Sequence record: PQ338057.1
Source of the DNA: a phage
Reading direction: 5' to 3' (one strand)
Length of the DNA: 64,000 nt
How positions within the stretch are numbered: position 1 is the stretch's first letter; the number at the start of each line of letters is the position of its first letter. The translations under genes and the position numbers were made by a program. Shown here one piece after another: positions 38,010-62,004 of this stretch. The notes beneath the pieces are model-generated. The model searched no databases. It was not told where the DNA came from and worked only from the letters and a program-made list of their open reading frames with translations.

Positions 38010-38032
38010 ATGGCGACAAAATGGCGGCAGCG
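38010..38032. repeat. Prophage att core repeat (ogr-proximal end)
   Basis: atggcgacaaaatggcggcagcg; 22/23 identical to 61982-62004; abuts ogr stop codon. Confidence 0.6.
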
Positions 38033-38284
38033 TCAAAGAGAGAGCGCCACCTGTCCTGATTTCATTGGATGCGGCTGAACCGGATTTGACTCTTTTGGCG
38101 TTGCAATCGAACGAACAAAAGTTTCATGAGTAACAAAAGTATGGCTGCAGTTAATGTTCTGGCACTGGTTGTAACGCTCTTTGGTCAATGAAGATACCTG
38201 AAAACTGCTGCGAGTATGGGCGGCACTTCCACACAGTGGGCAAATCATCATTTTTCGAGTTCTCCCCATTTTTGCTAAATTCAC
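38033..38284 (-). CDS. ogr: Ogr/Delta-type zinc-finger late-gene activator
   Basis: 83 aa; CPLCGSAAH...CQNINCSHTF four-Cys motif as in P2 Ogr. Confidence 0.85.
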   Translation of the reverse strand: MNLAKMGRTRKMMICPLCGSAAHTRSSFQVSSLTKERYNQCQNINCSHTFVTHETFVRSIATPKESNPVQPHPMKSGQVALSL

Positions 38285-38341
38285 AATAATGATACCGCAT
38301 TATTCCATTTTGAGAACTTAAAAGTTCTCCATTGCGAAGAA

Positions 38342-38710
38342 TCATTCCATTTCGAAATCATCAATCTTCACTTCAAGCTCCAGACTGGTCGTAAAACCGT
38401 TATCCGGGCTGACAGTATGCGTCAGGGTGGTAATAGTCCATTCCGCATCATCTATCGGCTGTTTAAAGCCACTGACTTTCACTGGCATTTCCGTGTAGAG
38501 ATCTGCCCGCCCTTCCGCCAGTTGTAGCGAGAATGACGCAACGCCGCGTTGCAGGCGTTCCCACTGCATTTTCGCCGCTCGTTCGGCGTTGCTCCGGTTG
38601 GCATAAGTGCGATTAAGTACCAGCACGTTTTCATCCGTACCCACCAGGTAATCGCCCTGCTTCGCTTCCGGCTCTTTCTTCTGCTTCTTAGTTCTGCGCT
38701 TACGCTTCAC
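38342..38710 (-). pseudogene. C-terminal remnant of P2 gpD-like late tail protein
   Basis: 122-aa ORF immediately upstream of ogr as in P2 (U-D-ogr); far shorter than gpD (~390 aa); fused to the invertase remnant. Confidence 0.55.
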
Positions 38711-38988
38711 CGTGGTGCTTTCTTTCTTCGCAGGTTCGCGGGTAACTCTTCTATCAGCGTAACAAGATGCCGCATACTGCGCCCCAACCTGTCCAGCTTC
38801 CAGACAACCAGCGTGTCTCCTGCCGATAGTGTCCTGAGCAGTTTTTTCAGCCCCGGTCTGTCGGACTTAGTGCCGCTGATTTTATCCTCAAAAATCCGCT
38901 CACATCCCGCGCAGTTCAGCGCACTACGTTGCAAATCGGTGTTCTGGTCATTTGTTGACACGCGTACATAGCCAATAAGCATGATCAT
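38707..38988 (-). pseudogene. Truncated Gin/Pin/Hin-family serine DNA invertase (N-terminal ~80 aa only)
   Basis: MLIGYVRVSTNDQNTDLQ...DTLVVWKLDRLGRS matches the invertase catalytic domain; C-terminal HTH domain absent. Confidence 0.75.
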
Positions 38989-39009
38989 CTCCTTGAATAA
39001 AAATCGGGG

Positions 39010-39552
39010 ATGATGCCAGTTAGTCGTAATCGCTGCATTTTCTTAAACGTTGGTTTGGGAGAAGACTCTGCATTACCTGTTGGGGTGCCTGTTCCGTGGC
39101 CTTCAGCCACTCCGCCTACAGGCTGGCTGAAATGCAATGGTGCAGCTTTTTCTGCTGAAGAATACCCGGAACTGGCAAAGGCTTATCCGACAAATAAATT
39201 GCCTGATTTACGTGGTGAGTTTATTCGTGGCTGGGATGATGGGCGTGGTATTGATGCTGGACGTGCCTTGCTAAGTCTTCAGAATGGAGGAGTGGAATCA
39301 CACACCCACCAGGGACAGCTCTTCAGAGTCAGTGATTATCGTACAAAAGAAATACCAGCATCAGAAGTTATGGGAAGAGGATATATTGCAAGCCTGACGC
39401 CGGGTGCTGATAGCCCACTTGATTTTGATGATTATTCTGTATCCTCTAATCCAAATGGATATTTTGTCGGGAATCAGAGAACAACAGCATATGGGGTAAA
39501 TGAAACCCGCCCACGGAATATTGCATTTAACTATATCGTGAGGGCTGCATAA
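39010..39552 (+). CDS. Alternative tail-fibre C-terminal cassette (promoterless) in invertible segment
   Basis: Opposite orientation to H; shares the GLG junction with H at the crossover repeat; followed by its own tfa gene. Confidence 0.7.
   Translation: MMPVSRNRCIFLNVGLGEDSALPVGVPVPWPSATPPTGWLKCNGAAFSAEEYPELAKAYPTNKLPDLRGEFIRGWDDGRGIDAGRALLSLQNGGVESHTHQGQLFRVSDYRTKEIPASEVMGRGYIASLTPGADSPLDFDDYSVSSNPNGYFVGNQRTTAYGVNETRPRNIAFNYIVRAA
39041..39064. repeat. gix/hix-like invertase crossover site (invertase-proximal)
   Basis: ttcttaaacgttggtttgggagaa; 13-bp core ttggtttgggaga is a perfect inverted copy of 41127-41139. Confidence 0.55.
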
Positions 39553-40154
39553 TGGATAACGCTGTATTAAATAGCGAGCTTATTGCCACGAAGGCGGGAA
39601 ATATTCCTGTCTATAACTATGATGGTGAAACACGGGAATATATTTCCACTTCAAATGAATATCTTTCCGTTGGTGTCGGCATTCCGGCATGTTCCTGTTT
39701 AGATGCCCCTGGCACACATAAGGCTGATTATGCAATCTGCCGTTCTACAGATTTTAACTCATGGGAATATGTGCCAGATCATCGCGGTGAAATCGTCTAT
39801 AACACCGAAACGGGAGATGCCAAAGAAATCACAGCTCCGGGTGATTACCCTGAAAATACAACCACTATCGCACCGTTAACGCCATACGATAAATGGGATG
39901 GTGAGAAATGGGTGACAGATACTGAGGCACAACACGGTGCCGCAGTAGAAGTGGCAGAAGCACAACGCCAGTCACTGATTGATGCAGCAATGGCTTCCAT
40001 TAGTCTGATTCAGCTGAAATTGCAGGCCGGGCGGAAGCTGATGCAGGCAGAAACCACCCGACTTAACATTGTGCTGGATTACATTGACGCGGTGACGGCA
40101 ACAGATACCAGCACCGCGCCGGATGTCATCTGGCCTGAACTGCCGGAGGCGTAG
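39552..40154 (+). CDS. Tail-fibre assembly chaperone (alternative Tfa)
   Basis: 200 aa; convergent with the prophage G-like tfa; typical Mu-G-segment-like layout. Confidence 0.75.
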   Translation: MDNAVLNSELIATKAGNIPVYNYDGETREYISTSNEYLSVGVGIPACSCLDAPGTHKADYAICRSTDFNSWEYVPDHRGEIVYNTETGDAKEITAPGDYPENTTTIAPLTPYDKWDGEKWVTDTEAQHGAAVEVAEAQRQSLIDAAMASISLIQLKLQAGRKLMQAETTRLNIVLDYIDAVTATDTSTAPDVIWPELPEA

Positions 40155-40563
40155 GCCATTCAATATCTGGCACACTGGAGGTATCAACCAGCTCCAGTGC
40201 GTCCAGATAATCCAGCCACGAATTATATTGCGCCAGTTCCTCGCCTTTCAGACGACCAATAGCGGCTTTACCGGGCCATTGTTTACTGTTCATGTATTCG
40301 TTGGCCTGATTAATTAATAGCTGTCTTTTTGACTCAGAAATTTCAATAAGTTCTTCATGCGTGGGTGAAGGAATATCTGCCCACGCAGGCATTCCGTCTG
40401 CACCTGCAATACGTCGCTTACCCTGCGGAGGTGTCGCCATAAACGACTCGGCACGTCGGGTTTCAATATCTTTTGCATCATCAGGCCATGTGCCGGAATC
40501 GCGGTATACGGCCTCATTACCAGCCAGATAAAACGCATTTTTTTTAGCACTGTATTTGTACAT
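40126..40563 (-). CDS. Tail-fibre assembly protein (P2 gpG-like)
   Basis: 145 aa directly downstream of H. Confidence 0.8.
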   Translation of the reverse strand: MYKYSAKKNAFYLAGNEAVYRDSGTWPDDAKDIETRRAESFMATPPQGKRRIAGADGMPAWADIPSPTHEELIEISESKRQLLINQANEYMNSKQWPGKAAIGRLKGEELAQYNSWLDYLDALELVDTSSVPDIEWPTPPAVQAR

Positions 40564-40564
40564 A

Positions 40565-42187
40565 TTATTTCCCTACCGCAATCCAGAAAAATGAACTCAT
40601 GCTGGCTACTGGTGCTCCGCCCGCTGTTGGAATCATCAGATTTCGGACGCCGCATCCTAAATTAGTTATCGTTGGCGCTGAAATTACTGGCGACTGAACT
40701 ACGTTAGGAAGCGATGCCTGCTGAGGACCAAATCCCACATACATCGGGTATGCAGAGAACGCGACAGGAAACGTAATAAAGATCTCTCCAGTTGATGATG
40801 GATTGGCTGCCCCCCACTGAATAATCAGACCTGACGGTAATTTTTGCCAGCCAGGGCTGGTCAGGCTGGATGTGAAGTCATTCATATCCGGAATCTGATT
40901 TGCCCCTGAGCCAACATCCCTTTGAGCCGCACTTTTCAGATCAAGATAAGTTCTTAGTTCAGCCTTATCCTTACCGCTTAAATCTGTCAGTGTCTGGTCT
41001 TTTGGTTGCGCATAGTCTTTTGTTGCCAGACGAACTACTGTATTTGTTCTGGCGAATCGCATATACGGGGCATTGACGTTACTACTGTCAAACCCTGCAA
41101 TTTTACATTCATCACCAATTAATGCATCTCCCAAACCAAGGTATGCGAGAAGACCAGCTACATCCTTTCCACTCAAATTAGTCAGCGTATTGTCCAACGG
41201 TTGTTTACCTGCCAGCGCATTAAGCATTGTCGTGGCAAAGTTCGGGTCATTCCCCAGCGCCGCAGCCAGTTCGTTCAGTGTATCCAGTGCAGCAGGTGCA
41301 GACCCCACCATTGCCGCAATTGCCGATTTCACAAAAGCCGTGGTGGCAATCTGTGTATTGTTAACCGACTGTGCGGCAGTGGGGGCTGTTGGCGTTCCGG
41401 TGAATGCCGGACTTAACAGCGGCGCTTTCAGTGCCAGCGCATTGTTAATGGTGGTACTGAATTTCGGGTCATTATTAATGGCAGCGGCAATTTCTTTCAT
41501 CGTATCCAGTGTGGCTGGCGCACCATTAATAAGGGCCATCAGTGCCGCCTGAACAAACGCGGTGGTCGCAATCTGCGTGGTGTTATTCCCCTCCGCTGGC
41601 GTTGGCGCTTTGGGTGTTCCGGTCAATGTCGGGCTTTCTTTGGGTGCATACTGTGAATGCGGGTCCGGTGCGGCAAGATGTTTTGCCATCTTATCATCCA
41701 CGAACACCTTCAGCTCCAGTACCTTGTCATCCACATACTTGCGGGTTGCCAGCACGACGGCAGGGTCGATTTTCAGGGTGATATTGTCCGTGCTGCTGGT
41801 AATCAGCACCATGCGCACGGTCTGGGTACGCCCACTGCCTTCAGCCAGTTGCGGCTTATAGCTTTCCGGGCAGTTTCCCACGGCAATCAATGCCCCGGAC
41901 TCATCAAACAGGCCCACTTCACGTATCCACCAACCGCCCTCATTTTCAGGGATTACCTGTTCAGCAATAATCTGGCTACTGTTCTGCGGGTCGATATAGA
42001 GCATATTCAGCGCAGCCCGGCGTTTCTCATTCACCAGTGCAGTCTGCTTTGCATCCGGCGTTGGCAATACTCCGCCGCCATCGCCGACCGCCATATGGGT
42101 AATTTTTAAAGGCACACCGAGCGCGGCGGCGCTGGCAAGTTTCGCCGCGCCAATATCCGTCAGCAGGGTATAAAATTTTGTGCTCAT
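40565..42187 (-). CDS. Tail fibre protein (P2 gpH-like)
   Basis: 540 aa; N-terminus MSTKFYTLLTDIGAAKLA...MAVGDGGG resembles P2 H. Confidence 0.88.
   Translation of the reverse strand: MSTKFYTLLTDIGAAKLASAAALGVPLKITHMAVGDGGGVLPTPDAKQTALVNEKRRAALNMLYIDPQNSSQIIAEQVIPENEGGWWIREVGLFDESGALIAVGNCPESYKPQLAEGSGRTQTVRMVLITSSTDNITLKIDPAVVLATRKYVDDKVLELKVFVDDKMAKHLAAPDPHSQYAPKESPTLTGTPKAPTPAEGNNTTQIATTAFVQAALMALINGAPATLDTMKEIAAAINNDPKFSTTINNALALKAPLLSPAFTGTPTAPTAAQSVNNTQIATTAFVKSAIAAMVGSAPAALDTLNELAAALGNDPNFATTMLNALAGKQPLDNTLTNLSGKDVAGLLAYLGLGDALIGDECKIAGFDSSNVNAPYMRFARTNTVVRLATKDYAQPKDQTLTDLSGKDKAELRTYLDLKSAAQRDVGSGANQIPDMNDFTSSLTSPGWQKLPSGLIIQWGAANPSSTGEIFITFPVAFSAYPMYVGFGPQQASLPNVVQSPVISAPTITNLGCGVRNLMIPTAGGAPVASMSSFFWIAVGK
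41127..41152. repeat. gix/hix-like invertase crossover site inside H
   Basis: tctcccaaaccaa is the reverse complement of the 39050-39062 core; sits at the GLG codons of H. Confidence 0.55.
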
Positions 42188-42789
42188 GGATTCACTCTCA
42201 TTGTGTCAATAACATGGACCGCCCCGCCTTCATGCGCGGTGCCACCGGAAATAATTGTTTCGTTGATATACGGATAGATCGTGATTTCTTCGCCAAGATA
42301 GCTGGCGGCTCCCACCCAATGCGGGCCGCTGGTCTGCAGGTTGATGGACATGCCGATCATGTGACGGCTGCATGGTTTGGCATCGCTTATCAGTCGCTCA
42401 AGTTCCAGATAGGTATCTTCAGTGATGCCCTGGTCCTGCACGCCGATATCCAGACGAAACGTGCCCGGTGTCTCTCCGGTCTGCCACCACTCAATAATGC
42501 GGATCAGAAAGCCGAACGGCTCCACCACCCGCCGCACGGCACTGGTGGTCCCTTTATGCTGATGAATATAAAAAGCATCCTTCACCACCTGGCGCTTGAC
42601 ACTTTCTGTCCAGTCCTCGTCCCAGCGATCCACAGAGAACGCCCAGGCGAGATAAGGCAGGAAACTGACCGGACAGGTTGCCGGATTCCACAAGTCACGA
42701 AGCGGCACCTGCAGATCAGAAATCCCGCTGCAGGTTTGCGCCAGTCGGCGCTCCAGTGGTGTTGAACCCGGTGGCAGCAGACTATTCAT
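42184..42789 (-). CDS. Baseplate assembly protein (P2 gpI-like)
   Basis: 201 aa; position between J and H. Confidence 0.85.
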   Translation of the reverse strand: MNSLLPPGSTPLERRLAQTCSGISDLQVPLRDLWNPATCPVSFLPYLAWAFSVDRWDEDWTESVKRQVVKDAFYIHQHKGTTSAVRRVVEPFGFLIRIIEWWQTGETPGTFRLDIGVQDQGITEDTYLELERLISDAKPCSRHMIGMSINLQTSGPHWVGAASYLGEEITIYPYINETIISGGTAHEGGAVHVIDTMRVNP

Positions 42790-43690
42790 CCGTTCCTCCG
42801 TTGGTTACGCTCCACTGCGTACATGATGCCGCCTGTGTTTTGTTCAGGACCACATCCGCCAGAGGAGAAGCCAGCTCCACACGCTGCACACCCTCAACAT
42901 GCAAGGCGGCAAAGATGGCGCTACGGCGAATATCCCGACCAAGACGCGTCTGACTGGCGATGTACTTCTGCAGGCTGGCTTTTGCCGCTGCCATTACCGG
43001 CTCTGCTTCCGGTCCCGGATAGAGAAAAATGGTGGCTTCCACGCGATACGGGATGATTTCTGCGCTGCGAACCGTCAGACGGTCAGCCACCGGGCGGACG
43101 TTCTCACTGTTCAGGGCTTTTTCCACCACATCCAGCAGGTCTTTTTCTGCTGTTCCGTCGCCTTCACGGCTAAGGACAGTCAGTACCACCTCTGCAGGTG
43201 CCGGACTGGTTGCACTGGCATCCGCCACCCGACCGTCGGCGCTTCGGGCATGAAATTCATAGGCTGCAGTTGGCCCCGCAACTGAAAGCCCTTCAAAGGC
43301 TGCAGGCACACGCAGGCGTAACGCTTCATCGCTTTCCATCACAGCCGCAACGGGCGGCACAGCGTCATTATCAGCAGGCGTCACCGTCAGGCGTTTCACG
43401 TTGTAGTTGGCAGCGAGCTGGTCAAGATCGCCGCCCATCGCGTAAGCCACCATCACCGCCTGCGCGGCTTCGTTAATGCGCTGGCGCAGAAGCAACTCAC
43501 GGTAAGCATTCTCCTGCAGCAATTTGGTGACGGGTTCAGATTCCAGTTCCAGCGTGCGGATCACGGCTTCCTGCTCATCTTTCGGATGAAGCGCAACAAA
43601 TTCGGCCTTGCGTTCGGCAAGCAACGTCTCAAAGTCCGGCACATCGACAATCTGCGGCGCAGGCAACTGCGAAAGGTCAATCACTGCCAT
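42782..43690 (-). CDS. Baseplate assembly protein J (P2 gpJ-like)
   Basis: 302 aa from MAVIDLSQLPAP; closely resembles P2 gpJ as recalled. Confidence 0.88.
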   Translation of the reverse strand: MAVIDLSQLPAPQIVDVPDFETLLAERKAEFVALHPKDEQEAVIRTLELESEPVTKLLQENAYRELLLRQRINEAAQAVMVAYAMGGDLDQLAANYNVKRLTVTPADNDAVPPVAAVMESDEALRLRVPAAFEGLSVAGPTAAYEFHARSADGRVADASATSPAPAEVVLTVLSREGDGTAEKDLLDVVEKALNSENVRPVADRLTVRSAEIIPYRVEATIFLYPGPEAEPVMAAAKASLQKYIASQTRLGRDIRRSAIFAALHVEGVQRVELASPLADVVLNKTQAASCTQWSVTNGGTDE

Positions 43691-44036
43691 TCTCTGCTCC
43701 TGTTGATACGGAAAGGGAAACAGGCACACCGTTATTACGCCGCCCGGTCAGTCCCACCACCATTGAACCGTCAAAATTGCTGTTAATGGTGATGGAATCC
43801 AGCGTCAGCCGTGGCTCCCAGCGACTCAGCGCCACATACACTGCCGACATGACCTGCAGGCGTAACGCCGGATTTTGTGGCTGGTCTATCAGTGCCGACA
43901 GCAGGGAACCATATTCACGGCGAGCAATGCGGCTACCCTGCGGCGTCAGCAGAATGTCCCGCACCGACTGGCGCAGATGGTCAATATCAGTAATGACTTT
44001 GCCGCTGGTATTGTTCATCCCGCTATAAAGCGTCAT
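43677..44036 (-). CDS. Baseplate protein W (P2 gpW-like)
   Basis: 119 aa between V and J. Confidence 0.8.
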   Translation of the reverse strand: MTLYSGMNNTSGKVITDIDHLRQSVRDILLTPQGSRIARREYGSLLSALIDQPQNPALRLQVMSAVYVALSRWEPRLTLDSITINSNFDGSMVVGLTGRRNNGVPVSLSVSTGAENGSD

Positions 44037-44714: not shown

Positions 44715-45521
44715 ATGAGTGTTATGAATCCAATAAGTTCTAATATATTTAATGCTGAATTTTTAAACACCCCGGCAGCGGCACTTGCCGCATGGATTTC
44801 CATTATTGGAGCTGTTATAACTTTGGTGACGATAGTTATAAGAGCACTATTCAAATATAGAAAATCTCATGATGTAATTTTGAAAAAATCAGGAATACCT
44901 GCGTTTATATTAAATTTTTTTCTTATACGAATATCATTAAAAAGGCTGCCTACTATCACATGGGCTGAAAAATCAATCACGGTTCTCTTTTCACTTCTTT
45001 TTTTGTGTGCAATTTATATTTTTGGTCCAGTTTTCATCCAAGCCATTAGAACCCCACCAAATAGCACATTGCTTTATTGGATAAAGTCCGGTGAATCATT
45101 TTATATGTCAAAAAAACTGGCGACTGCAGCTACAATATTAACCACTCCTGATTGGGAAATATCAAAAGATGATTGCGAAGAGTCATCCTCTGCCAGTACA
45201 GAGAAGTACAAATCATTAACTATCGAACATAAAGAAATTCTTTGTAAACTACTAACCACTGATGAAGGGAATACTTACATTGATGAAGAAGTCAAGAATT
45301 TCGTTAAAGACAAATTCTTTATCTATTCCTTTGCCCCAACAACCATATTTATTCTATTATGGATTTCTTTGGGTTTTATACTGACCATTCACTATTCTAA
45401 AAAAGTTAGGAAATATATTCTGACTGAACAAAAAAATGCAATTCATTGGGCATATGGTGAATTCAAGACAGAAGGAATCTATTCAATATATCACGAGTTA
45501 GAACGTAAGACTCACCATTAA
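44715..45521 (+). CDS. AT-rich cargo gene encoding a polytopic membrane protein
   Basis: 268 aa with several hydrophobic helices; SD aggtgg; anti-oriented between S and V where P2 has no gene. Confidence 0.6.
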   Translation: MSVMNPISSNIFNAEFLNTPAAALAAWISIIGAVITLVTIVIRALFKYRKSHDVILKKSGIPAFILNFFLIRISLKRLPTITWAEKSITVLFSLLFLCAIYIFGPVFIQAIRTPPNSTLLYWIKSGESFYMSKKLATAATILTTPDWEISKDDCEESSSASTEKYKSLTIEHKEILCKLLTTDEGNTYIDEEVKNFVKDKFFIYSFAPTTIFILLWISLGFILTIHYSKKVRKYILTEQKNAIHWAYGEFKTEGIYSIYHELERKTHH

Positions 45522-46586: not shown

Positions 46587-46857
46587 GTTTCAGTTCCTCG
46601 ATCCGGTGTTGTCGTTGTCTCAGCAGTGCACTGGTCTGTTCTGCTTCGGCATAGAGCCGCGCCTGCTCCCGGTTATTGGTTTCAGTCAGAATGGACAGGC
46701 TGATAAGCTGGCTGTTTTTCTTCGTCAGTTCCTGCGCTTTACTTTTCAGCGCCGCGCGCTGCGTTTCGATGGTGTGGCTGGCGCTGTTAAGCCGCCACGA
46801 CTGCCAGCCCAGCGCAACGAGTGCCAGCGCCACCACTACTGCCAGCGCACGCGTCAT
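46429..46857 (-). CDS. i-spanin (LysB/Rz-like)
   Basis: 142 aa; N-terminal TM then coiled-coil-rich periplasmic region. Confidence 0.65.
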   Translation of the reverse strand: MTRALAVVVALALVALGWQSWRLNSASHTIETQRAALKSKAQELTKKNSQLISLSILTETNNREQARLYAEAEQTSALLRQRQHRIEELKRENEDLRRWADTPLPADIIRLRERPALTGGTAYRQWLSASDAVSAGSGNAAH

Positions 46858-46993
46858 AGTCCAGCTCCTTTAAGGCACCAGGCCATCTCCCGCGCACGGC
46901 GGTTATCCAGCCCCTGATTAAACACACCTTTTACATAAACCCAGCGCGGCAACTGTCGGCACGCATCTGCCCAGCGCCGCTGATTGAGCAATT

Positions 46994-47746
46994 TCACCAG
47001 TGTGGAACTACAGGCATTGCCCGTTGCTGCTTCTGCAGAGCAGACTCCAGTTCAGACAGGCGTTCTTCCTGCTCAGACAGAGATTTTTCGGTTCGCGCGC
47101 TCAGGTTTTGCTGCTCAGTGGCGACCAGCTCCACGGCCTTATGCACATCAGAGAACCGGGCGTCATCGGACTGCTCTTTTTTGGTGAACAGCGCCGTGAC
47201 GCGGGAAAACAGGGACGGTTTGTCGTCCTGGACTTCCTCCAGTTCGATCACCGTTTCCTCTGCAGCGGTAAAGAGATTGGCAGGATTCTGCTTGCGGTTT
47301 GCCAGCGGGTTATGGGCTGCACTGGCGCTGAATGTCAGCATTTCAGTGCCCAGACTGGCAGGGTCATCAGTGGCAGCCAGGCCGACCAGGTAGGCTTTGC
47401 CCGTATCAGCGAACTTCGGGCTGACTTCCATAGAGGTGAATAATTTCTGGCCTTTTTTCACCAGTTCCACCAGGGACTCCGTTGGCTCAACGTCGGCATA
47501 CAGCGCCATCTTGCCTGCCAGCGGACCTTCCGTGATTTCCTCAGCAAACAGCGCCGTCACCTTGCCGTAGCGGTTAAAGGTGCTGTCCGGCAGATAAGAC
47601 TTGATGTGCTCAAGGTTAATCAGCGCGGTATACACCGCCGGGTTGTAGCTGGCTGCCATCTGTTCCAGCCATTCACGCTGGATTTCGCGTCCGTCGGTGG
47701 TGGCACCTTCCACCCCGATGCGAAAACGCTTTGCTTTCACTGTCAT
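46994..47746 (-). pseudogene. Capsid scaffold protein (P2 gpO-like), C-terminally truncated
   Basis: 250 aa, resembles P2 gpO; divergent from P; the downstream N-M-L-X-Y-K-lysA block is missing. Confidence 0.7.
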
Positions 47747-50688: not shown

Positions 50689-50716
50689 CGAAGACCATTA
50701 GGTCTTCGCTTTATTT
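50689..50716. terminator. Hairpin between convergent portal and retron RT genes
   Basis: cgaagacc-atta-ggtcttcg followed by ctttattt. Confidence 0.45.
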
Positions 50717-51660
50717 AAAGGGTTCTTTCCATATTTTTTTTCTAATTTGCTAATATAAGTTATTAATCTCCTATGGCTTTTTGAATCCACACTTAAAATA
50801 AATGACAACCATCCCCTAACGTGTTCTATCTCAGAAGACTTACCGCAAAATATATGATGTATCTTTGCTCTAATTTCTTTATATTTTTCTCTACCTATCC
50901 CAACTTTCTCTTGTGAAATAACTAAACCTGTAACTTTCCTCTGACTACGAGGCCCACTAATACAAGTTTTTTTTGAGTTAATAACCAATCCTTCACTTGG
51001 GATTATAGAAAATAAAAAATCACGTGCTTTAACAACCTTTTTCATAGACTGTGCAGATAAGGTGAGATCATCGGCATATCTCGTATATATCAAGCCCCGA
51101 CTACCTGCATAACCCTGAATACGATAATCAAGTTTAGAACATATTAGATTAGCTAATTTAGGTGATGATGGAGCACCTTGTGGTAGCAGATTTTTATAAC
51201 AACATATTTTTGTCAAAACTGAAGATATTAGTCGATTATAACCAAGAGAATGGAACACTCCAAAAACTTTGTTAGCAGTTAAACTTGGGAAAAAATCCTC
51301 CAAATCAATATTCAGTATAAAGTTTGCCCCAATATGCGGGGTAGCATTATTCAAAATAGATTGGTGCTTTTCAAATCCAATAGAAAAAGGAGATGACGAC
51401 AGTTTATCTAAAATGTTACGTAGAACCCATCCTTGTAAGGCTTTAAGTTCTCGAGAAGGTTGGTAAATGGTTCTCATTCTCTTCTCTGGGCCTTTCTTTT
51501 CTACAGTGTAGATCCTATAGCGAAAATCAGCTGTATAGATTAACAACCGAAGTGTTTCAACAGATATGCGAGTCGCCTTAGACATGTCATGCAAATTGTT
51601 CATGACAGGTAGGCCGAGATTTCTCAATCTAAAAGTGTTCAAATATTCAGCGGATTTCAT
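50698..51660 (-). CDS. ret: Retron-type reverse transcriptase
   Basis: 320 aa; motifs NATPH (NAxxH), YADD, VTG; AT-rich; ncRNA immediately upstream; from memory matches the Ec86/Eco1 RT. Confidence 0.95.
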   Translation of the reverse strand: MKSAEYLNTFRLRNLGLPVMNNLHDMSKATRISVETLRLLIYTADFRYRIYTVEKKGPEKRMRTIYQPSRELKALQGWVLRNILDKLSSSPFSIGFEKHQSILNNATPHIGANFILNIDLEDFFPSLTANKVFGVFHSLGYNRLISSVLTKICCYKNLLPQGAPSSPKLANLICSKLDYRIQGYAGSRGLIYTRYADDLTLSAQSMKKVVKARDFLFSIIPSEGLVINSKKTCISGPRSQRKVTGLVISQEKVGIGREKYKEIRAKIHHIFCGKSSEIEHVRGWLSFILSVDSKSHRRLITYISKLEKKYGKNPLNKAKT

Positions 51661-51666
51661 GAAAGT

Positions 51667-51836
51667 TGCGCACCCTTACGTCAGAAAAAACGGGTTTCCT
51701 GGTTGGCTCGGAGAGCATCAGGCGATGCTCTCCGTTCCAACAAGGAAAACAGACAGTAACTCAGATTCAATGCAGGATGCCGAAACAACATCCAGAGGTT
51801 GACCTTAATGATAAACCTCTCGCTAAGGGTGCGCAT
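51667..51836 (-). ncRNA. msr-msd: Retron msr-msd non-coding RNA
   Basis: 12-nt terminal inverted repeats tgcgcaccctta (51667-51678) and taagggtgcgca (51824-51835); long internal hairpin; ends 7 nt before the RT start. Confidence 0.85.
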
Positions 51837-52746
51837 ACGGAATCTTATCATAGTTAAATGTTGATTTTCTACGGTTTTCAAAATTCATAATCTCAAGCCG
51901 CAATCGGTCAAGTGTCTTTCTATCAAAGACGCTCCTAACATAGCTAGCCCCCAAAGCAGTGACCTGATAACCATCAGTCATTTGAAGTATTTTTCGTTCA
52001 TTTATTAGACGAGAAACAACGGATCTAACAATAATTTTAGATAAAACATCATCTTGCTTTATCGCTTTAAAAGCTAGTTCACACAGTGTGCGGTAGTTGA
52101 CACTATCCAGTAAATAGATACAAGGCAATAGAAACCGCTCTGCGTATAATATATTTCCAATATCTTTTGATACTTTATTTTCTTTCCTAACCTTCTTAAT
52201 AGATGCCATTAATTTTTTATATAATCGTAATTTTCTGGCAACATCAATAGATGAATCACACATTTCTTTTAGTTCATTTGAACTACAACGCAAAACAGAT
52301 TTTGAATTAAACTTACGCAACAGGCGAACAGGACCATAGTTAATAAAGCTACGTTTTGATTTAAATTTTGCATCTTGAATGCAAATCAACTTTCTCCTTA
52401 AGTTTTCATTATTAGAGAACGCACCAAGCTCTGTGAAAGACCCCGGACTTTCAGGAAATAAAATTATTACATCGACAGCTTCAGCCAGAATATTTTCTAA
52501 ACTTAAAAGGCTATGCTGCCCTTGACCAGCCAAAAGATCATCAAATAGATCTTCTGGATAAAATATATCAACATCACTGAACTTTGCTAAAAATTGTGAT
52601 AATTGATGACGCCAAGATTGATGATTAGCAACGTCACCACCACATAGAAAAATGGTTATTTTAATATTAGCTCCTCGATAGAAGCCTTTCTTTGTGAGAT
52701 GTCCTATAAGCTGTTGTTGCTGCTCATCGGTAAATTTTTTATTCAT
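51823..52746 (-). CDS. Retron effector (predicted nucleoside-deoxyribosyltransferase-like N-glycosidase with C-terminal DNA-binding region)
   Basis: 307 aa, AT-rich; first gene of the retron operon with its 3' end overlapping the msr start; Rossmann-like N-terminus KITIFLCGG. Confidence 0.75.
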   Translation of the reverse strand: MNKKFTDEQQQQLIGHLTKKGFYRGANIKITIFLCGGDVANHQSWRHQLSQFLAKFSDVDIFYPEDLFDDLLAGQGQHSLLSLENILAEAVDVIILFPESPGSFTELGAFSNNENLRRKLICIQDAKFKSKRSFINYGPVRLLRKFNSKSVLRCSSNELKEMCDSSIDVARKLRLYKKLMASIKKVRKENKVSKDIGNILYAERFLLPCIYLLDSVNYRTLCELAFKAIKQDDVLSKIIVRSVVSRLINERKILQMTDGYQVTALGASYVRSVFDRKTLDRLRLEIMNFENRRKSTFNYDKIPYAHP

Positions 52747-53981: not shown

Positions 53982-53990
53982 AAAGTCACC

Positions 53991-54331: not shown

Positions 54332-56752
54332 TTAATACAGGTTCCGCCACTTATCATCTTCCTTCAGACGCTGGTTCCGATAGAAGATACGCAGGCCTGC
54401 TCCTGACGGAATACTGCCGCCGCGAAGGAGCAAATCGACTTCTTTCTCGCTGCCATCAAATCCCCTGGACTTCAGTTCATAGACGAGCTGCTGTCGCTGA
54501 TGGTCTGTAATTCGCTGTTTGTAGTCTTTACGCCGTTTCGGTTTCACCTGGCGTAACCTTGCAGCCAGTTCCCGGCGCTCTTTTTTGCTCATACTGTGCA
54601 GGTAATTGTGCAACTCCTTGTCATTCATACGGGTAATATCCGTTCTGGAGTCCCCATCAGCTGATTTGTCTTTCCCTTGTTGGTTCAAATTTTCAGCAAG
54701 GGGACAGTTATTGCCACGAGTCCAAGGGGCGCAAGCGCCCTGGTCGGCTGCCGCCTCCTGAACGTCAACGGCCTTACGAACCATTTTCCACTTCACCGCA
54801 TGAGTGCAGATCTTGCCCTCTGCAATGGGTGACCAGATGCCATAAATACGAATACCGTGATCGCCATATGCGGTCGGTTCTTCGTTGATTTCATAAGCAG
54901 TTCTGATGAGGTGATATTTGCGGGGAACCAGTACGCCGCCCTGCTTCATGATGTAGGTGGCAAAACAACCAGCATCAGCAGCAGCCAGGATTGCATCAAG
55001 ACGCGGGTTATCCAGTACCGGCGCACCTGCTTTTTTGTCACCCTGTTGCCTTGCCGCCTGACCAGCCAGCAATCGCAGTTCACGGTAAGCCTGACGCCCC
55101 GGAATGCCAAAGAAGCGGAATTGCTGAACACGATGCAGAGACGCCCAGGCATTAACGTATTCAGCGTTATCACGCAGGGATTTACCCGTTTCCTTGCTGA
55201 TCTCCCCAGCCAGACCACGCCCGTCAATGTTCTTACTGATGTATTTCGCGATATAGCTTGTTGGCGTACCTTTGCGCGGGTTTATCAGCTCAGACTTAAA
55301 GCGTGGTCCCGTGTTATTGCCCAGCTCCTCGCGGTCTTCACGGATGGCAAACTTACGCAGTAATGCAGTGATGGCGCGGCGGTCTTTTTTACGCATGAAA
55401 CACATGAGATGCCAGTGCACAGTACCGTCATGATGCGGCTCAGCTACCCGCACGCCATACCAGCGCAACTCGGCTTTATGCATAGCCTTACGAAATGCAG
55501 CAAACATGCCGACCAGATAATCGCTACTTTGTCTTACCGTCGCGTTTGTCCAGGTCGGGTTTGGTCTGCCGTTATTGAGCGTGGAATGGAAACGCGACGG
55601 ACAGGTGATAGTGTAGAAAACGGCACAGTCACTGCGCATTTCCGCGATAAGCTCCAGACCTTTAACACAGGCCATCATCTCATTGCGGCGATGCGCCGGG
55701 TTGCTGCTGCTGGCGTTTACCACATCTTCCATATCCAGCGTGTCGCCGTCTTCGTTCACCAGTTCATGAGAACGAAAAAACTCCAGCGACTTACGGCGCT
55801 GCTCACGTTTATGCATCACGGCTTCATAGCTGACATAGGGGGATGCTTTTTTGCTGACCAGGCAGACAGCACGCAACTGCTCTTCCCGCCATTCGCAACG
55901 CATCTTCCATAATTTCCGATACCACCAGTCGGCACACAACATACGCGCCAGCGAACCCGGGATGAGTTCATAGAGCACTGGTTTGCGGCGGTTTATTTTC
56001 CGACGAAGTTTCTCAAACGCAGGCGGGATAACATCCAGACGCAGGGTTTCCGCTGCCACCTTTTCCCATGTCTTGCGGATTTCTTCTGGCTTAACGTCAT
56101 CGGTGGCATACAAATCACCACAAGCGTCCTCAAGACACATGCTCATATGCGCTGCTACCAGGGTGGACAGGCGTTTCACCTGATCCTGGCTCATTTCAGG
56201 CAGGATCAGCAGACCCTCCAGCCCTTGATGGCTTGCCATAAAACGGAAAGAAACAGATAGCTGACTGTCACGTACACAATCCAGTCGCTCCAGACATGGC
56301 TTAATCGTCTCACGCAAATAGCGGGAATAAGCCTTTGGCCTGCCCAGGCTGCTGAAGTATTCAATACGTTGCATCAGCGGCTTGCTGATATGGGAAGGCT
56401 GGGCGTTTACGTCCGCCAGAATGACCATGTCCGGATTAAAACGCTGCTGCTCATGCGCCAGCTTTGCCCGGCTAATGAGCTTATCCTGCTCCATTTCGCG
56501 CTGGACAGGATCACGGGATTCATTAAAGAAATAACGCTCCCAGACCTGCTCACTCAGTGCCTCGCGGCGCAGTTGTTCCTGCTCGTTATCGGCAGCGTAC
56601 AGAGTGATCAGGTTTGAAAGTGCAGACTCCGGCGCAACTTCCGCCGGGTCCAGATAAGGGTTAATGGCCTTTTTCGAGCCGTTCCATGAAAATGCTGCGG
56701 CGGCCTCGTTAAAGCCGCTGCAATAGTTCATATCGTCATGACTCATACACAC
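54332..56752 (-). CDS. Rolling-circle replication initiator (P2 gpA-like HUH endonuclease)
   Basis: 806 aa; HWH motif (TVHWHLM) and paired Tyr (SYIAKYISK). Confidence 0.88.
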
Positions 56753-57600
56753 ACTCCGTACACGGCAGAACTATCCACGCCACGCGAAGGATCAAATCCC
56801 AACCAGCAGCTCGGCCCGGAAACAGCAATGATTTCTGTTGCAGATTTACCCTCGCCAGCTGACACGCCGATGCTGCGTTTTGCCTTGATATAGTGGTGAG
56901 TAAAATTGCGATACAGCGAACGAATCAGGGATGTGTCATTGTTAGAAACAATGACCGGATGTCCTTCTGATGACCGATGTTCAAGAATGGATGCCAGGTG
57001 ATACTGGTCATCTTCAGTGAAACCATCAGTGTGATAGCCGGAAAACGTACCGTCATACGGCGGATCGCAATACACCACATCCCCCACCTGCAGCATCGCC
57101 AGCGTTTCATCAAAGCTCGCGCAGATAAACGTTGCCCGCTGGGCTTTCTCTGCAAATGCGCGAATTTCTTTTTCAGGGAAATACGGATTTTTATAATTAC
57201 CGTAGGGAATGTTGAAATACCCGCTCTTGTTATAGCGACATAAACCACGGTAACCGTGACGATTGAGATACAGGAAATATATCGCCTTCATGAAATCAGT
57301 AATTTCAGTTGAGTAATTAAACTCCTGTCTTATGTTGTAATAAGCCAGCTCACTGTTTGCTTCCTCAAATAAAACTTTGGCACGAGATATAAACGCTTCG
57401 CAATCAGCGGCAATCTTTTTATAGAGGTTGATTAAATCAGGATTAATATCCGCAACCAGATAGCTGGGGTAATCCGTCGCCATCATCACAGCACAAGAAC
57501 CCGCGAAAGGTTCAACCAGTCGCGGGCCAGCAGGAAGGTATTTTTTCAGTTCGGACATAATGGCGGTTTTATTACCCGCCCATTTCAGGATGGTGCTCAT
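56743..57600 (-). CDS. dam: DNA adenine methyltransferase (Dam-like)
   Basis: LKWAGNK and DPPY motifs; start taken at [11 protein letters not shown]. Confidence 0.85.
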
Positions 57601-57824
57601 ACAGCACCTCCGTTGTAATGTTTGCCTTTCAGCTCTGCGATTTCCTGGCAGGTAATGCAAAGCTGCACTCCAGGAATGGCACGGCGGCGTGCTGGCGGAA
57701 TTGGCGCTTCACACTCAACGCAAAGCACGCGGGACACGCCCGGCGTTTTGGCACGGGCAGCACGGATATGGCGTTGGCGTTCTTCTTCAACGCGCTGCTG
57801 TACGAGATCCATTGCATCAGCCAT
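57597..57824 (-). CDS. TraR/DksA-family C4 zinc-finger protein
   Basis: 75 aa; CxxC...CxxC (CVECEAP...CITCQ). Confidence 0.7.
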   Translation of the reverse strand: MADAMDLVQQRVEEERQRHIRAARAKTPGVSRVLCVECEAPIPPARRRAIPGVQLCITCQEIAELKGKHYNGGAV

Positions 57825-58063
57825 CAGTGGATCTCCTGCGCTTCGTTCTGGATTGCTTCAGCAGTCACACGCAGCAGTTCTGCCGCTTCGACGTGGTTTA
57901 GCTGGCGGGAGGTGATATGACACGCCAGGCTATCGAGGCGAGCAGCCATTGCTTCAGCCCTTGCCCGGCGTTCTTCCAGACGAGCCTCTGTCAGTAAAAG
58001 ATTAAGACCTGCATCATCCGGTCCGGTTTTGGTCGTGAGGGTTTCAATATTACGCATAAGCAA
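57824..58063 (-). CDS. Hypothetical phage early protein
   Basis: 79-aa ORF in the early operon. Confidence 0.4.
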   Translation of the reverse strand: MLMRNIETLTTKTGPDDAGLNLLLTEARLEERRARAEAMAARLDSLACHITSRQLNHVEAAELLRVTAEAIQNEAQEIH

Positions 58064-58124
58064 TTCTCCTGAATTTAGATAAAGGGATGCCCGGCGGGTT
58101 TACGCCATTAATTTCATTAGTTGG

Positions 58125-58466
58125 TTAATTCGGCATGGTTAGCCGTCTGGGAAATAAGCTCACCACTGCACGAAAATGATTCATTGCTTTAATCAACTCC
58201 CGCTTTTCGTCAGTGGTCAGCTCATTAATGCTGATGCTATGACGTTCAGCTGGAATTTTTGCCATAAAGAATATGGCAGCCAGTGCCCGTTTATTTTGTT
58301 CATTATTGATATCCCGTGGATCACGCATATCTTTAATAAACCGCTCAAGCTCTGACTCAATATTCAAACCAAAAACTTTCGCCCTTAACTCCGCAATATG
58401 ATTAAGTCCATTCAGGCGTTCACCGGGTCTTAATGGAACAGTCGCCGCAGCGCCTTCAATAGCCAT
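58125..58466 (-). CDS. Hypothetical phage early protein
   Basis: 113-aa ORF in the early operon. Confidence 0.4.
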   Translation of the reverse strand: MAIEGAAATVPLRPGERLNGLNHIAELRAKVFGLNIESELERFIKDMRDPRDINNEQNKRALAAIFFMAKIPAERHSISINELTTDEKRELIKAMNHFRAVVSLFPRRLTMPN

Positions 58467-58637
58467 TTGTTCCCCCGTTTTTTCGTAGATAGTTCTGCCA
58501 GCAATTCATCTTGTGAACGGCACGGATGCCAGCGTTTTCCATCCTCACCCATGATCCAGCCGTGACCGTAGTGCATTGCCGGGCTTTGCTTTACCAGCAG
58601 CGATGCAAATGATGGTTCTTTCGTCAGCATAAGCACC

Positions 58638-59153
58638 TCACAGCAAACCGAATGAAGCACCGAGGCCAGTCACGGTATCAACTGCACTCGCCATCGCAGG
58701 GTTAGCCTGTAAACGGGCCTGCAATGAAACAGCAGCCAACGCCATCAGTCGTGTTACAGAGTTAATGCTGCTGATAGCATCACGACGACCTGCACTGGTT
58801 TTTACATCGCCAGATACCGCACCTGCAGCAACACGCCCGATCTCTGCGGTTGCACTCATGACGTAATGTGGCAGTTTCTCTTTTGCCACCTCATTAATCG
58901 GTACGCATGGCAGGCAGTGAATCTGAGCCAGAAAACCATCTACCAGCGTTGAATCTTCAGTCAGATCGGTAAGCAGCCAGATTTCTGGTGCGGTTAATAA
59001 ATGAGGTTGCGCTGGGTTCAACTTGTTCCGCAGAATCTGCACATTCATGCCAGCACGTTCTGCCAGTTGCACCAGGTTGTGGCGCAATGCGAATGCACGA
59101 CAGGCTTCATCAAAATGTGGATGTTTGGAAACTTGGTAATCAAACATGGTCAA
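58638..59153 (-). CDS. CII-like (186-type) HTH lysogeny-establishment activator; alternatively P2 B-like
   Basis: 171 aa; HTH-like [19 protein letters not shown]; second gene of the early operon after apl/cox. Confidence 0.55.
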
Positions 59154-59179
59154 TGCCTCTGATGTATTTCAGAATCGAA

Positions 59180-59401
59180 CTAATTAAGGTTTAGATTGCA
59201 TTCTGAAAGCGCATCAACGGTCATTGCTGCTATGTTGATCATCACTTTTTCGCGTTTTTTATCTTTGCGCAGTCGGTGACGGATAAGGCGTCCATCAGCC
59301 AACATGTCATTGATGGTATCGATGGATAGCCCTGTCAGCTCGCTATAGCGTTCAATAGTCACATGAGGGGTGGTAAGAGTGATTGAAATGTTAGGTCTCA
59401 T
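59180..59401 (-). CDS. Cox/Apl-like excisionase and switch regulator
   Basis: 73 aa, first gene divergent from the repressor. Confidence 0.6.
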
Positions 59402-59520
59402 GATGCAACATTCCTCGTTTAATGATGATTAATCAGGACGAATACGGATCGTTTGTATTTTGTGAACACCATAAACATACGATCGCACAGTGAAATCGTC
59501 AAGATAAAAGTTCACTTGGA
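59402..59520. promoter_or_regulatory. Divergent lysis-lysogeny switch promoter/operator region
   Basis: 119-bp AT-rich gap between the divergent apl-like and cI-like genes. Confidence 0.4.
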
Positions 59521-60096
59521 GTGACCATGAATTTGGAGAAAGGCGGACGAGGCGCTATAGAGCGCATGGTAGAAGCTTATGGATTCAAGACTCGACAGGC
59601 GTTGTGCGATCATTTAGGAATCTCTAAAAGTACACTCGCCACACGCTACATGCGTGACTCATTCCCAGCAGAATGGGTAATCCAGTGCGCCCTTGAAACA
59701 GGCACCTCGCTTAATTGGCTCACAACCGGGCATGGTTCAAAGCAAACTTCAGGTAATACAAATACTATGGAAGTTGCTAAATATGTATTATCTGATGGGG
59801 CCTTGTGTGAAGACGGTTTTTATATTTTCGATAGAGAATTTCTACCGTCGGCATTCAAGAATCTTTTTGTAATCACAGATAATAATTCTGAATTTATTTG
59901 TGATAAGGAATTTGATGATATACGTGATGGTAAATGGGTAATAAGTATTGATGGCGAAATAACGATCCGTGACATTACTCGTTTACCCGGTGGAAGAATC
60001 TTCGTCGAGGGTGGAAATAGAGCCTTCGAGTGCAAGATAGAAGATGTTGAAATAATTGGGAAAATTATAAGTTTAACAATTAAGTACGTTAGGTAA
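59521..60096 (+). CDS. Immunity repressor (186 CI-like size and layout)
   Basis: 191 aa; N-terminal HTH TRQALCDHLGISKSTLATRY; upstream of int. Confidence 0.7.
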   Translation: MTMNLEKGGRGAIERMVEAYGFKTRQALCDHLGISKSTLATRYMRDSFPAEWVIQCALETGTSLNWLTTGHGSKQTSGNTNTMEVAKYVLSDGALCEDGFYIFDREFLPSAFKNLFVITDNNSEFICDKEFDDIRDGKWVISIDGEITIRDITRLPGGRIFVEGGNRAFECKIEDVEIIGKIISLTIKYVR

Positions 60097-60111
60097 TACC
60101 GGGAGGAAACT

Positions 60112-60303
60112 ATGCTTGGTAAGGTATTTTTTGTGGTTTTATCATGCTCTTTGTTATTAAACCCACTAACTACCTATGCTAAAAATTATCCTTGTTCTGG
60201 GAAAAAGGGAGGTGTCTCTCACTGTACCTCCGATGGAAAGTTCGTTTGCAATGATGGAACTATTAGTAAATCAAAAAAAATCTGTACTAAAAACTCGCGA
60301 TAA
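60112..60303 (+). CDS. Small Cys-rich secreted or lipoprotein-like protein
   Basis: 63 aa; signal peptide [23 protein letters not shown]; 5 Cys in mature part; AT-rich. Confidence 0.45.
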
Positions 60304-60489
60304 ATTTTGCTTTTATATCTGCGCCTAATATAACAATGAGCCGCAGGCTAACCGCAAAAGTCACATACTCACATAGCAAAAAATAGCTAACTTCATTATG
60401 GCTTCAGTGAGATGTATGGTCGCAGGATTTCATACATTGACACTGGTTATACATACAGTAAAAATGCTCTCTACTGGAGGGCATTTTTT

Positions 60490-61506
60490 ATGGCAGTACG
60501 AAAACTCACCACAGGAAAATGGCTTTGCGAATGTTACCCCGCCGGACGTAGTGGACGTCGTGTGCGTAAACAATTCGCCACCAAAGGCGAAGCTCTGGCT
60601 TTTGAGCGTCACACGATGGAAGAAACCGAAGCAAAGCCCTGGCTGGGCGAATCAGTGGATCGTCGGACATTGAAAGACGTGATTGAGCTATGGTTCAAAC
60701 TACATGGTAAATCTCTGACAGCTGGGCAGCATGTCTATGACAAACTGCTGTTGATGGTTGACGCTCTGGGCAATCCCCTTGCAACTGATCTAACCTCTAA
60801 AATGTTTGCCCACTATCGAGATAAACGCCTGACAGGTGAGATCTACTTCAGCGAGAAATGGAAGAAAGGAGCAAGCCCGGTCACCATTAACCTGGAGCAA
60901 AGCTATCTAAGTAGTGTTTTTAGCGAACTATCCCGCCTGGGCGAATGGTCGTATCCGAACCCACTGGAGAACATGCGAAAATTCACCATCGCAGAAAAAG
61001 AGATGGCATGGCTTACCCATGAGCAGATTGTTGAACTGCTGGCTGATTGCAAACGTCAGGACCCAATTCTGGCACTGGTAGTCAAGATATGCCTAAGCAC
61101 AGGCGCACGCTGGCGAGAAGCAATAAATCTTACCCGCTCGCAAGTGACCAAATACCGAATTACCTTTGTAAGAACGAAGGGGAAGAAAAACAGAAGCATC
61201 CCTATCAGTAAAGAGCTTTACGAAGAGATCATGGCGCTTGATGGGTTCAATTTCTTTACAGACTGCTATTTTCAATTTTTATCCGTGATGGAAAAAACGT
61301 CTATCGTGCTCCCTCGCGGTCAACTGACACACGTTCTGCGCCATACGTTTGCGGCGCACTTCATGATGTCGGGTGGAAATATCCTTGCTTTGCAAAAAAT
61401 CCTCGGACATCACGATATAAAAATGACTATGCGCTATGCCCATTTAGCACCCGATCATCTTGAGACGGCTCTGAGATTCAACCCCCTCGCAACGCTAGAA
61501 GTGTGA
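60490..61506 (+). CDS. int: Tyrosine integrase (P2/186 Int-like)
   Basis: 338 aa from MAVRKLTTGKW; motifs R...HxxR...Y (LSTGARWREA, HVLRHTFAAH, MRYAHL). Confidence 0.92.
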   Translation: MAVRKLTTGKWLCECYPAGRSGRRVRKQFATKGEALAFERHTMEETEAKPWLGESVDRRTLKDVIELWFKLHGKSLTAGQHVYDKLLLMVDALGNPLATDLTSKMFAHYRDKRLTGEIYFSEKWKKGASPVTINLEQSYLSSVFSELSRLGEWSYPNPLENMRKFTIAEKEMAWLTHEQIVELLADCKRQDPILALVVKICLSTGARWREAINLTRSQVTKYRITFVRTKGKKNRSIPISKELYEEIMALDGFNFFTDCYFQFLSVMEKTSIVLPRGQLTHVLRHTFAAHFMMSGGNILALQKILGHHDIKMTMRYAHLAPDHLETALRFNPLATLEV

Positions 61507-61614
61507 TCTACTGGTGCAAAAATAACATCATCCCCCACTAGCTGAGTTAATTGCGTCAGAGTAAACTTTTATCAGTATATAAGTTCACTTTTATTCAATA
61601 TATTAAGAGATTAC

Positions 61615-61947
61615 ATGGCTATCATTACCGTAAAAAAACATACTGTCAAAAAAGCATTATCGATGGGATTTGAAAAAGTACTTGACGATCGTGGTTATGA
61701 TTCTGGGGCGTACTACGTTAAAGATGGCAAAAAGTGGATTTTTGATATTGTTGCGCTTAAGCAAAAACAAGGAGCAACCTCAGATGATGAGTTAAAAATC
61801 CTTGGGTATGATGTTGATACATATAATCTTGTAAAAAATGAATCTAATGAACTGGCTGAACTTTATCAAGATATTGCAGTTGAAGATGGTGAGCCAATGT
61901 ATCTAGAGGGTGGCGTGTACTTATATCCTGATGGTTCTATCCGTTAG
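61615..61947 (+). CDS. Hypothetical protein between int and the att repeat
   Basis: 110-aa AT-rich ORF. Confidence 0.5.
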   Translation: MAIITVKKHTVKKALSMGFEKVLDDRGYDSGAYYVKDGKKWIFDIVALKQKQGATSDDELKILGYDVDTYNLVKNESNELAELYQDIAVEDGEPMYLEGGVYLYPDGSIR

Positions 61948-61981
61948 CATGCAAATTGGCAGCACAACCGGGTTGTTCCAA

Positions 61982-62004
61982 ATGGCGACAAAGTGGCGGC
62001 AGCG
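61982..62004. repeat. Prophage att core repeat (int-proximal end)
   Basis: atggcgacaaagtggcggcagcg; 22/23 identical to 38010-38032. Confidence 0.6.

Follow-up and report, generated by a model that had tools for sequence, protein, structure and literature searches.

Attachment-site anatomy of the rybB-inserted P2/186-like prophage of Escherichia coli B, and a predicted integrase arm-site role for its 23-bp repeats

The stretch analysed here, the 64,000-nucleotide sequence of record PQ338057.1 (the window), carries a prophage between the host genes ybjL and rcdA, and the exact ends and attachment (att) sites of this prophage are the subject of this report. The 25 kb around a pair of 23-bp direct repeats near its two ends matches E. 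coli B strains, REL606, ATCC 11303 and B among them, at 100% identity. As the initial annotation of the window had recognized, the element is a P2-like prophage whose left end carries ogr and whose right end carries int. For E. coli B, a prophage at rybB has been published before: Archer et al. 2011 (PMC3032704) describe Rybb*B, a P2-like element of E. coli B with the insertion site 'rybB ncRNA' that carries retron Ec86. Rybb*B is the same element as the one treated here, and the part of that article cited here lists its insertion site, not an att core or arm sites. The genes and junctions that define the locus are the following.

36112-37797, plus strand: ybjL, the left host flank, 561 aa (RefSeq REL606: aspartate:alanine antiporter YbjL).
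37874-37952, plus strand: rybB, an intact small RNA (sRNA) gene (mapped from the MG1655 annotation; Rfam RF00110, 105 bits, 37877-37955).
37942-37955, plus strand: attR common core, ATGGGTTTTTTGTT, at the left junction (K-12 identity ends at 37955; duplicate of 62097-62110; att annotation of Klebsiella phage 4LV2017).
38033-38251, minus strand: ogr/B-type late-gene activator (Pfam Ogr_Delta, 6.7e-22; RefSeq).
60490-61506, plus strand: tyrosine integrase (Int) of the 186 type, 338 aa (Pfam Int_N and Phage_integrase).
62097-62110, plus strand: attL common core, ATGGGTTTTTTGTT, at the right junction (K-12 identity begins at 62097; in empty-site genomes the attL query is matched only from 62097).
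62127-62663, minus strand: rcdA, the right host flank (RefSeq annotation).

In a base-by-base walk along the window and E. coli K-12 MG1655, the two were the same from at least 37732 through 37955 and again from 62097 on; these stretches share 14 bp, ATGGGTTTTTTGTT, and the inserted DNA amounts to 24,155 bp. This 14-mer is exactly duplicated at the host/phage junctions (37942-37955 and 62097-62110), with one copy in K-12 as against two in the window, and it is the longest exact repeat common to both ends, a length that none of 300 mononucleotide shuffles reached. The ybjL-rcdA interval of MG1655 holds rybB, whose 3' end lies 19 bp from the rcdA stop codon, and the empty site reads ...ggttgATGGGTTTTTTGTTatctaaaac... 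or, quoted at length, ...ggttcaaggttgATGGGTTTTTTGTTatctaaaacttatcta.... The core is made up of the last 11 nt of rybB plus 3 bp, and thus comprises the 3' half of the terminator stem, the T-run and 3 further bp; therefore the left junction regenerates rybB unchanged, the gene being identical to K-12 through 37955 and restored after the insertion. We conclude that the prophage is integrated into the 3' end of the small stable RNA gene rybB. The rybB gene is a member of the sigma-E regulon. At the opposite end of the prophage, a terminator-like hairpin (62082-62103) followed by a T-run lies downstream of the int operon, and the 5' half of its stem is supplied by the phage, at the end of a 92-bp arm. 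As to the kind of target, a tRNA or tmRNA gene was considered and rejected, since ARAGORN finds none in the window and the target is an sRNA gene; the earlier reading of the sequence had missed rybB as the integration target.

The same junctions recur on a large scale. Among 5,426 complete E. coli genomes, the contiguous (empty) ybjL-rybB-rcdA junction was found in 4,295, the present attL (int-side arm, core, rcdA) in 1,114 and the present attR (rybB, core, ogr-side arm, ogr) in 1,110, and this phage family is found at rybB in ~21%, or about one in five, of them. Because ATGGGTTTTTTGTT is the only stretch exactly common to the E. coli site (attB) and the phage site (attP), the sequence comparison places the crossover inside this 14-bp core. 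Just past the core, at 37956-37968, the phage and the K-12 host agree at 9 of 13 bases (GCCTGAAATTTAT versus ATCTAAAACTTAT; 2976-2964 of the K-12 stretch). Two apparent occupancy classes, which broke at query positions 384 and 397, were traced to BLAST extension through these 9 matching bases and were rejected as signs of a second element. The match between attP and attB is 19 bp long in Klebsiella as against 14 bp in E. coli, the Klebsiella host being the same as the phage for 5 bases further; this extended match past the core may represent a core-type Int site, or may mean that the phage is better adapted to Klebsiella.

The two 23-bp repeats, ATGGCGACAAAATGGCGGCAGCG on the left (38010-38032, plus strand) and ATGGCGACAAAGTGGCGGCAGCG on the right (61982-62004, plus strand), have a single mismatch, A/G at position 12, and both their coordinates and this mismatch are as first reported. 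At up to 3 mismatches they are the only matches of the 23-mer in the window, and 100 dinucleotide-preserving shuffles of the window yielded zero matches; therefore the repeat is real and far beyond chance. The left copy ends at 38032 and so abuts the stop codon of ogr (coding sequence 38033-38251, minus strand), and the right copy lies 475 bp past int, with a 110-aa open reading frame (ORF; 61615-61947) in between, which bears out the placement originally given for the two copies. A highly significant direct repeat near both ends, with one copy abutting ogr and the other past int, speaks for taking the 23-mers as the crossover cores of attL and attR, that is, as a duplicated attB marking the exact ends of the prophage. 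This is what the initial annotation had proposed, and we consider it almost certainly wrong. The K-12 MG1655 ybjL-rybB-rcdA junction, where a single copy had been expected, contains neither version of the 23-mer, the very outcome that the annotation had named as fatal to its proposal, and it is this contiguous junction that is found in the 4,295 empty-site genomes. Moreover, the DNA outside the repeats, which had been taken for host, is still phage for 54 bp on the left (37956-38009) and for 92 bp on the right (62005-62096), and the 23-mers thus sit 54 bp and 92 bp inside phage DNA.

The arrangement becomes clear when the phage form of the site is considered. We reconstructed attP by taking the right end as far as the last base of the core and continuing with the left end from the first base past the core, and this gave the following parts on the two sides of a single core.

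37956-38009: ogr-proximal arm spacer (P arm in P2 nomenclature), 54 bp; absent from K-12, contiguous with the core in Klebsiella phage KP12 with 2 differences.
38011-38018 (TGGCGACA) and 38022-38029 (TGGCGGCA), plus strand: left 23-mer, predicted tandem pair of 186-type arm-type Int sites (consensus match).
61983-61990 (TGGCGACA) and 61994-62001 (TGGCGGCA), plus strand: right 23-mer, predicted tandem pair of 186-type arm-type Int sites (consensus match).
62005-62096: int-proximal arm spacer (P' arm in P2 nomenclature), 92 bp; contiguous in KP12 and in Escherichia phages ESSI2_ev040 and ev129.

The reconstructed attP matches phage KP12 without interruption, at 98% identity, between int and ogr, and ev040 and ev129 have the contiguous order int, 23-mer, arm, core, arm, 23-mer. 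Both copies of the 23-mer are therefore contained in one contiguous attP in KP12, ev040 and ev129, where they flank one core. In the record of 4LV2017, attR and attL are annotated as 19-20 bp, ATGGGTTTTTTGTTGCCTG, the Klebsiella rybB end; this annotation puts att at the rybB terminator, and the 23-mers lie to the inside of attR and attL. A crossover core occurs once in attP. Here the core is single and the 23-mers are present twice, one on each side, and therefore the 23-mers are not the crossover core. Three properties are expected of a crossover repeat, namely a copy in attB, coincidence with the exact boundary and a single copy in attP; the 23-mer has none of them, and ATGGGTTTTTTGTT does have its copy in attB. 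The original assignment of the repeats to attR and attL of a P2-like phage thus holds in so far as they lie inside the functional attR and attL regions, but not in so far as it made them the crossover repeats.

Two concentric pairs of direct repeats, an outer one of 14 bp and an inner one of 23 bp, might also suggest nested elements, in which the 54-bp and 92-bp segments would be the remains of an older insertion at rybB that offered a 23-bp secondary attB, with the P2-like phage arriving later inside it. The contiguous attP sites leave this scheme with practically no credit: KP12, ev040 and ev129, which are phage records and not prophage excerpts, run between their two 23-mers from the 92-bp segment through the core into the 54-bp segment without a break, the same composite junctions are present in ~1,110 E. 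coli genomes, and a junction consisting of the outer segments only was seen in none of the 5,426.

Each 23-mer consists of two 8-bp half-sites of the form TGGCGRCA, TGGCGACA followed by TGGCGGCA, with a period of 11 bp, that is, one helical turn. Counted from the core, the half-sites start at -114, -103, +56 and +67 in the E. coli B reconstruction, in KP12, in ev040 and in ev129. The position of the A/G difference between the two copies is degenerate, being A, G or T among the four phages. The ogr-side spacer (~54-55 bp) keeps its length in ev040 and ev129, but its sequence is unrelated among E. coli B/KP12, ev040 and ev129. Half-sites that are invariant and in register across a diverged spacer are to be expected of protein-binding sites whose geometry is constrained, and such fixed spacing amid diverging flanks argues that the 23-mers are kept by selection and not by mere descent. 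The 92-bp int-side arm has the conserved blocks AACTTATTG and ATTGTTTT; when the arms were looked over by eye for IHF sites and core-type Int sites, only the AACTTATTG / ATTGTTTT block and an inverted repeat, CATAAAT...ATTTATG, were found, the latter lost in ev129. Klebsiella 4LV2017 (Elveevirus), KP12 and Escherichia ESSI2_ev040 and ev129 (Quadragintavirus) have in common with the E. coli B prophage the rybB-end core and arm 23-mers at identical offsets; what sets the E. coli B prophage apart from all four is that it is defective, carries retron Ec86 and has 481 bp inserted between its int and its arm sites.

We also weighed whether the 23-mers bind another phage regulator, as flanking operators of CI or as sites of Ogr/B, or are conserved for coding only. 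For coding it can be said that the int-side 23-mer lies inside the int ORF in KP12, in 4LV2017 and in most of the E. coli relatives (~1,000). The ogr-side copy, however, is non-coding in all the phages compared and yet is kept at a fixed distance within unrelated flanks, and the int-side copy of E. coli B is no longer coding and yet still intact; in addition, phages 186 and P2 have the same layout, annotated there as Int sites. We therefore hold an explanation by other regulators or by coding to be very improbable.

The likeness to known Int sites is close. The record of phage 186 annotates 'predicted Int arm-type recognition sequences; consensus YAYCGCCAYTY', three of them left of attP and two right of it; read in the direction from int to B, the homologue of ogr, these form tandem 11-bp pairs, GAATGGCGATA followed by AAGTGGCGGTA on the int side and GAGTGGCGATA followed by GAATGGCGGTG on the B side. 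Nilsson et al. (PMC3448106) distinguish two groups of arm-site consensus, tgTGGaCa for the P2 type and tgccGCCActt for the 186 type, and give the rule that each arm carries two or more direct repeats spaced by about a helical turn. Reverse-complemented, the window's AAGTGGCGGCA (61991-62001) equals the 186-type consensus tgccGCCActt without a mismatch; the other half-sites depart from it at 1-3 positions, none of them within the TGGCG core. In the P2 record, Int arm sites are marked at corresponding places, TGTGGTCAatgTGTGGACG adjoining ogr and TGTGGACActgTGTGGACA within the int 3' end. The integrase itself fits this picture, being 99% identical to the Int of KP12 and 56% identical to that of 186, and it retains the catalytic Tyr in the motif MRYAHL. 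Its N-terminal arm-binding segment aligns with that of 186 Int, with W11/E14/Y16 as in 186, where P2 Int has Y/D/R; these are the positions that PMC3448106 proposes as discriminators of arm-site types, although we infer the correspondence by mapping the alignment numbering of that paper onto the E. coli B prophage Int. Thus, the 23-mers lie on both arms, supply at least two direct repeats per arm about a helical turn apart, match the 186-type consensus and go with an Int of matching N-terminal domain, all of which is expected of arm-type sites.

The attP of phage 186 (Eganvirus), which integrates into the tRNA-Ile gene ileY at its 3' end, resembles the present one in having the consensus RARTGGCGR(Y)R in tandem 11-bp pairs on both sides of the core, a core that falls within a small RNA gene's 3' end, an Apl-type excisionase, a CI/CII/Fil module and an extra small ORF between int and attP (orf69 of 186). 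It differs in that its target is a tRNA gene, compared with the sRNA gene rybB here, that its common core is 36 bp long as against 14 bp in E. coli here, that its B/ogr side bears a third arm site, in inverted orientation, which is not seen here, and that its arm-to-core distances are not the same. In P2, the attP order is the same, with ogr, an arm repeat pair, a short arm, the core, a long arm with sites for the recombination directionality factor (RDF), an arm pair and int. As here, the ogr-side arm of P2 is short and the int-side arm long, the arm pairs consist of two 8-bp repeats with an 11-bp period and, as in KP12 and 4LV2017, the int-side pair and the int 3' end overlap. However, the P2 arm motif is TGTGGACA and not TGGCGRCA, and P2 integrates at intergenic loc sites and not in an RNA gene.

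The excisionase of the element offers a further candidate for binding to tandem repeats.

59180-59401, minus strand: apl/cox-like excisionase-repressor, the RDF (PHROG phrog_575 'Cox-like excisionase and repressor', 6e-31).

Apl/Cox proteins likewise bind direct repeats one helical turn apart, and the 23-mers could for this reason be their operators. The Apl operators of 186, however, are 6-bp sequences that need at least 3 adjacent copies, are confined to one arm and reappear between pR and pL (PMC7498355), whereas the 23-mers give two copies per arm and do so on both arms. Furthermore, RTGGCGRCA does not occur in the apl-cI intergenic region (59402-59520), and the motif fits the Int arm consensus and not the Apl sites, so that an RDF operator role seems to us highly unlikely.

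We therefore arrive at a rybB-inserted, defective P2/186-like prophage that arose by crossover in the 14-bp core and whose 23-mers are most likely arm-type sites of Int, as predicted from their sequence and position, and we assign this reading as a whole a probability of roughly 0.88. Several points weigh against it. The 9-mer RTGGCGRCA has 10 hits in the window, 6 of them singles elsewhere, against 3.2 expected by chance, and the specificity of the 23-mers accordingly lies only in their tandem arrangement and position. Compared with the consensus of the 186 record, the half-sites agree at 10 of 11 positions, with C for T (RARTGGCGRCA versus RARTGGCGRTR), and even in that record the arm sites carry the label 'predicted'; for the Int of the E. 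coli B prophage, too, the arm-site role of the 23-mers is a prediction. Lastly, no IHF or Apl sites were identified in the arms.

If the prophage works as P2, 186 and lambda do, the N-terminal domain of Int would bind the four arm half-sites and its C-terminal domains would bind the core. A host bending protein would fold the arms so that Int could bridge arm and core in a recombination complex, and Apl (59180-59401), bound in the long int-side arm, would join this complex and direct excision. Physical binding of Int to the 23-mers is thus proposed by analogy with these phages, as are the roles of IHF and Apl.

The int-side arm sites of E. coli B differ from those of its relatives in their immediate neighbourhood.

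61497-61977, plus strand: 481-bp insertion with a 110-aa ORF, 61615-61947 (precise insertion versus 4LV2017, between positions 33393 and 33395).

The insertion follows int codon 336 and separates int from the int-side arm sites, replacing a 14-aa Int tail that the relatives encode across these sites; because of it, the E. coli B Int is without the last 14 residues of its relatives. The insertion was found in 71 of the 5,426 E. coli genomes, always beside phage int. Its 110-aa ORF has no Pfam or PADLOC match, a marginal PHROG match and one tblastn match, at 52% identity, to a Salmonella Infantis record. Beyond the arm sites of the ogr side, ev040 has a gene for an abortive-infection family protein (stretch positions 933-1555) and ev129 one for a serine acetyltransferase (997-1542), and in view of these differing cargo genes the att-proximal region looks like a cargo hot spot.

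The remainder of the element was compared with its closest phage relatives, the P2-like Klebsiella phages 4LV2017 and KP12, to which it has ~95% DNA identity over shared blocks. In RefSeq REL606 it shows the P2-type order ogr, gpD remnant, fibre/baseplate, lysis, scaffold, terminase, portal, retron, replicase A, cII/apl/cI and int, and it is a P2-like (Peduoviridae) prophage with a 186-type regulatory module. Its further features are as follows.

38342-38982, minus strand: deletion scar, in which a C-terminal remnant of gene D (38342-38743) is fused to a truncated DNA invertase (38743-38982) (RefSeq pseudogenes).
44715-45521, plus strand: DUF6216 ORF, 268 aa, between baseplate V and tail-completion S (low-GC patch; absent from 4LV2017).
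46854-47025, minus strand: second deletion scar, in which an endolysin fragment is fused to a truncated scaffold gene O (4LV2017 positions 13815-16958 absent).
50698-52746, minus strand: type II-A retron, Ec86/Eco1 (PADLOC RT_II-A, 7e-128, for the reverse transcriptase; NDT_II-A, 3e-94, for the effector).

The first deletion removes the N-terminal part of gpD together with U, T, E, FII and FI, and in a blastn comparison with 4LV2017 the homology ends at 38744 (4LV2017 position 903) and resumes at 41127 (8323). Beside this scar lie alternative fibre-tip and tail-fibre-assembly cassettes (39010-39552, 39552-40154 and 40126-40563) that resemble a frozen invertible fibre segment. The second deletion took out holin, X, L, M and N, the major capsid gene, and cut into the endolysin and the end of O; the shortened scaffold protein gpO at this scar is 250 aa long (46854-47746 region). 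The virion gene set is accordingly incomplete: sheath, tube and tape measure are gone, as are holin, U, X, L, M, N and the N-terminal part of D, and given the two missing blocks relative to 4LV2017 the prophage is defective. For the retron, no msr/msd RNA was reported by Rfam at the gathering threshold. The DUF6216 ORF is on the opposite strand to its neighbours and has no PADLOC match. In BL21, BL21(DE3), C41, C43 and other strains of the BL21 lineage, 37510-62500 was matched over 87% and in two pieces, indicating that this lineage has lost ~3.4 kb more of the prophage than REL606 and B.

Since the rybB-end att core (4LV2017 annotation) and the architecture and consensus of the arm sites (PMC3448106; 186 and P2 records) are already known, as is the prophage itself, the sole local addition made here is the base-exact junctions and the att anatomy for strain B; the element is otherwise ordinary and no new biology is implied. 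In E. coli B, BL21 and REL606, the prophage with retron Ec86 thereby gains base-exact junctions and a labelled att anatomy. The result serves chiefly as a correction, namely that prophage ends should be set by comparison with the empty site and not by whichever direct repeat near them stands out most: among P2/186-like phages, the arm repeat (23 bp here) is longer and more eye-catching than the core (14 bp here), and therefore repeat-based calling puts the ends 50-100 bp too far in, and would also miss the sRNA gene rybB as the target. Of consequences for the element itself we can speak only tentatively, and we think them rather unlikely to hold. Because int (minus the 14-aa tail), apl, both att sites, replicase A, terminase and portal are kept, the E. 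coli B prophage may have stayed competent for excision, and a 186- or P2-like helper could mobilise it or recombine with it. Arm sites in the 3' coding end of int, which are the norm in the ~1,000 E. coli relatives and in P2, may likewise feed back on int expression, and, if so, the 481-bp insertion would have uncoupled this feedback in strain B.

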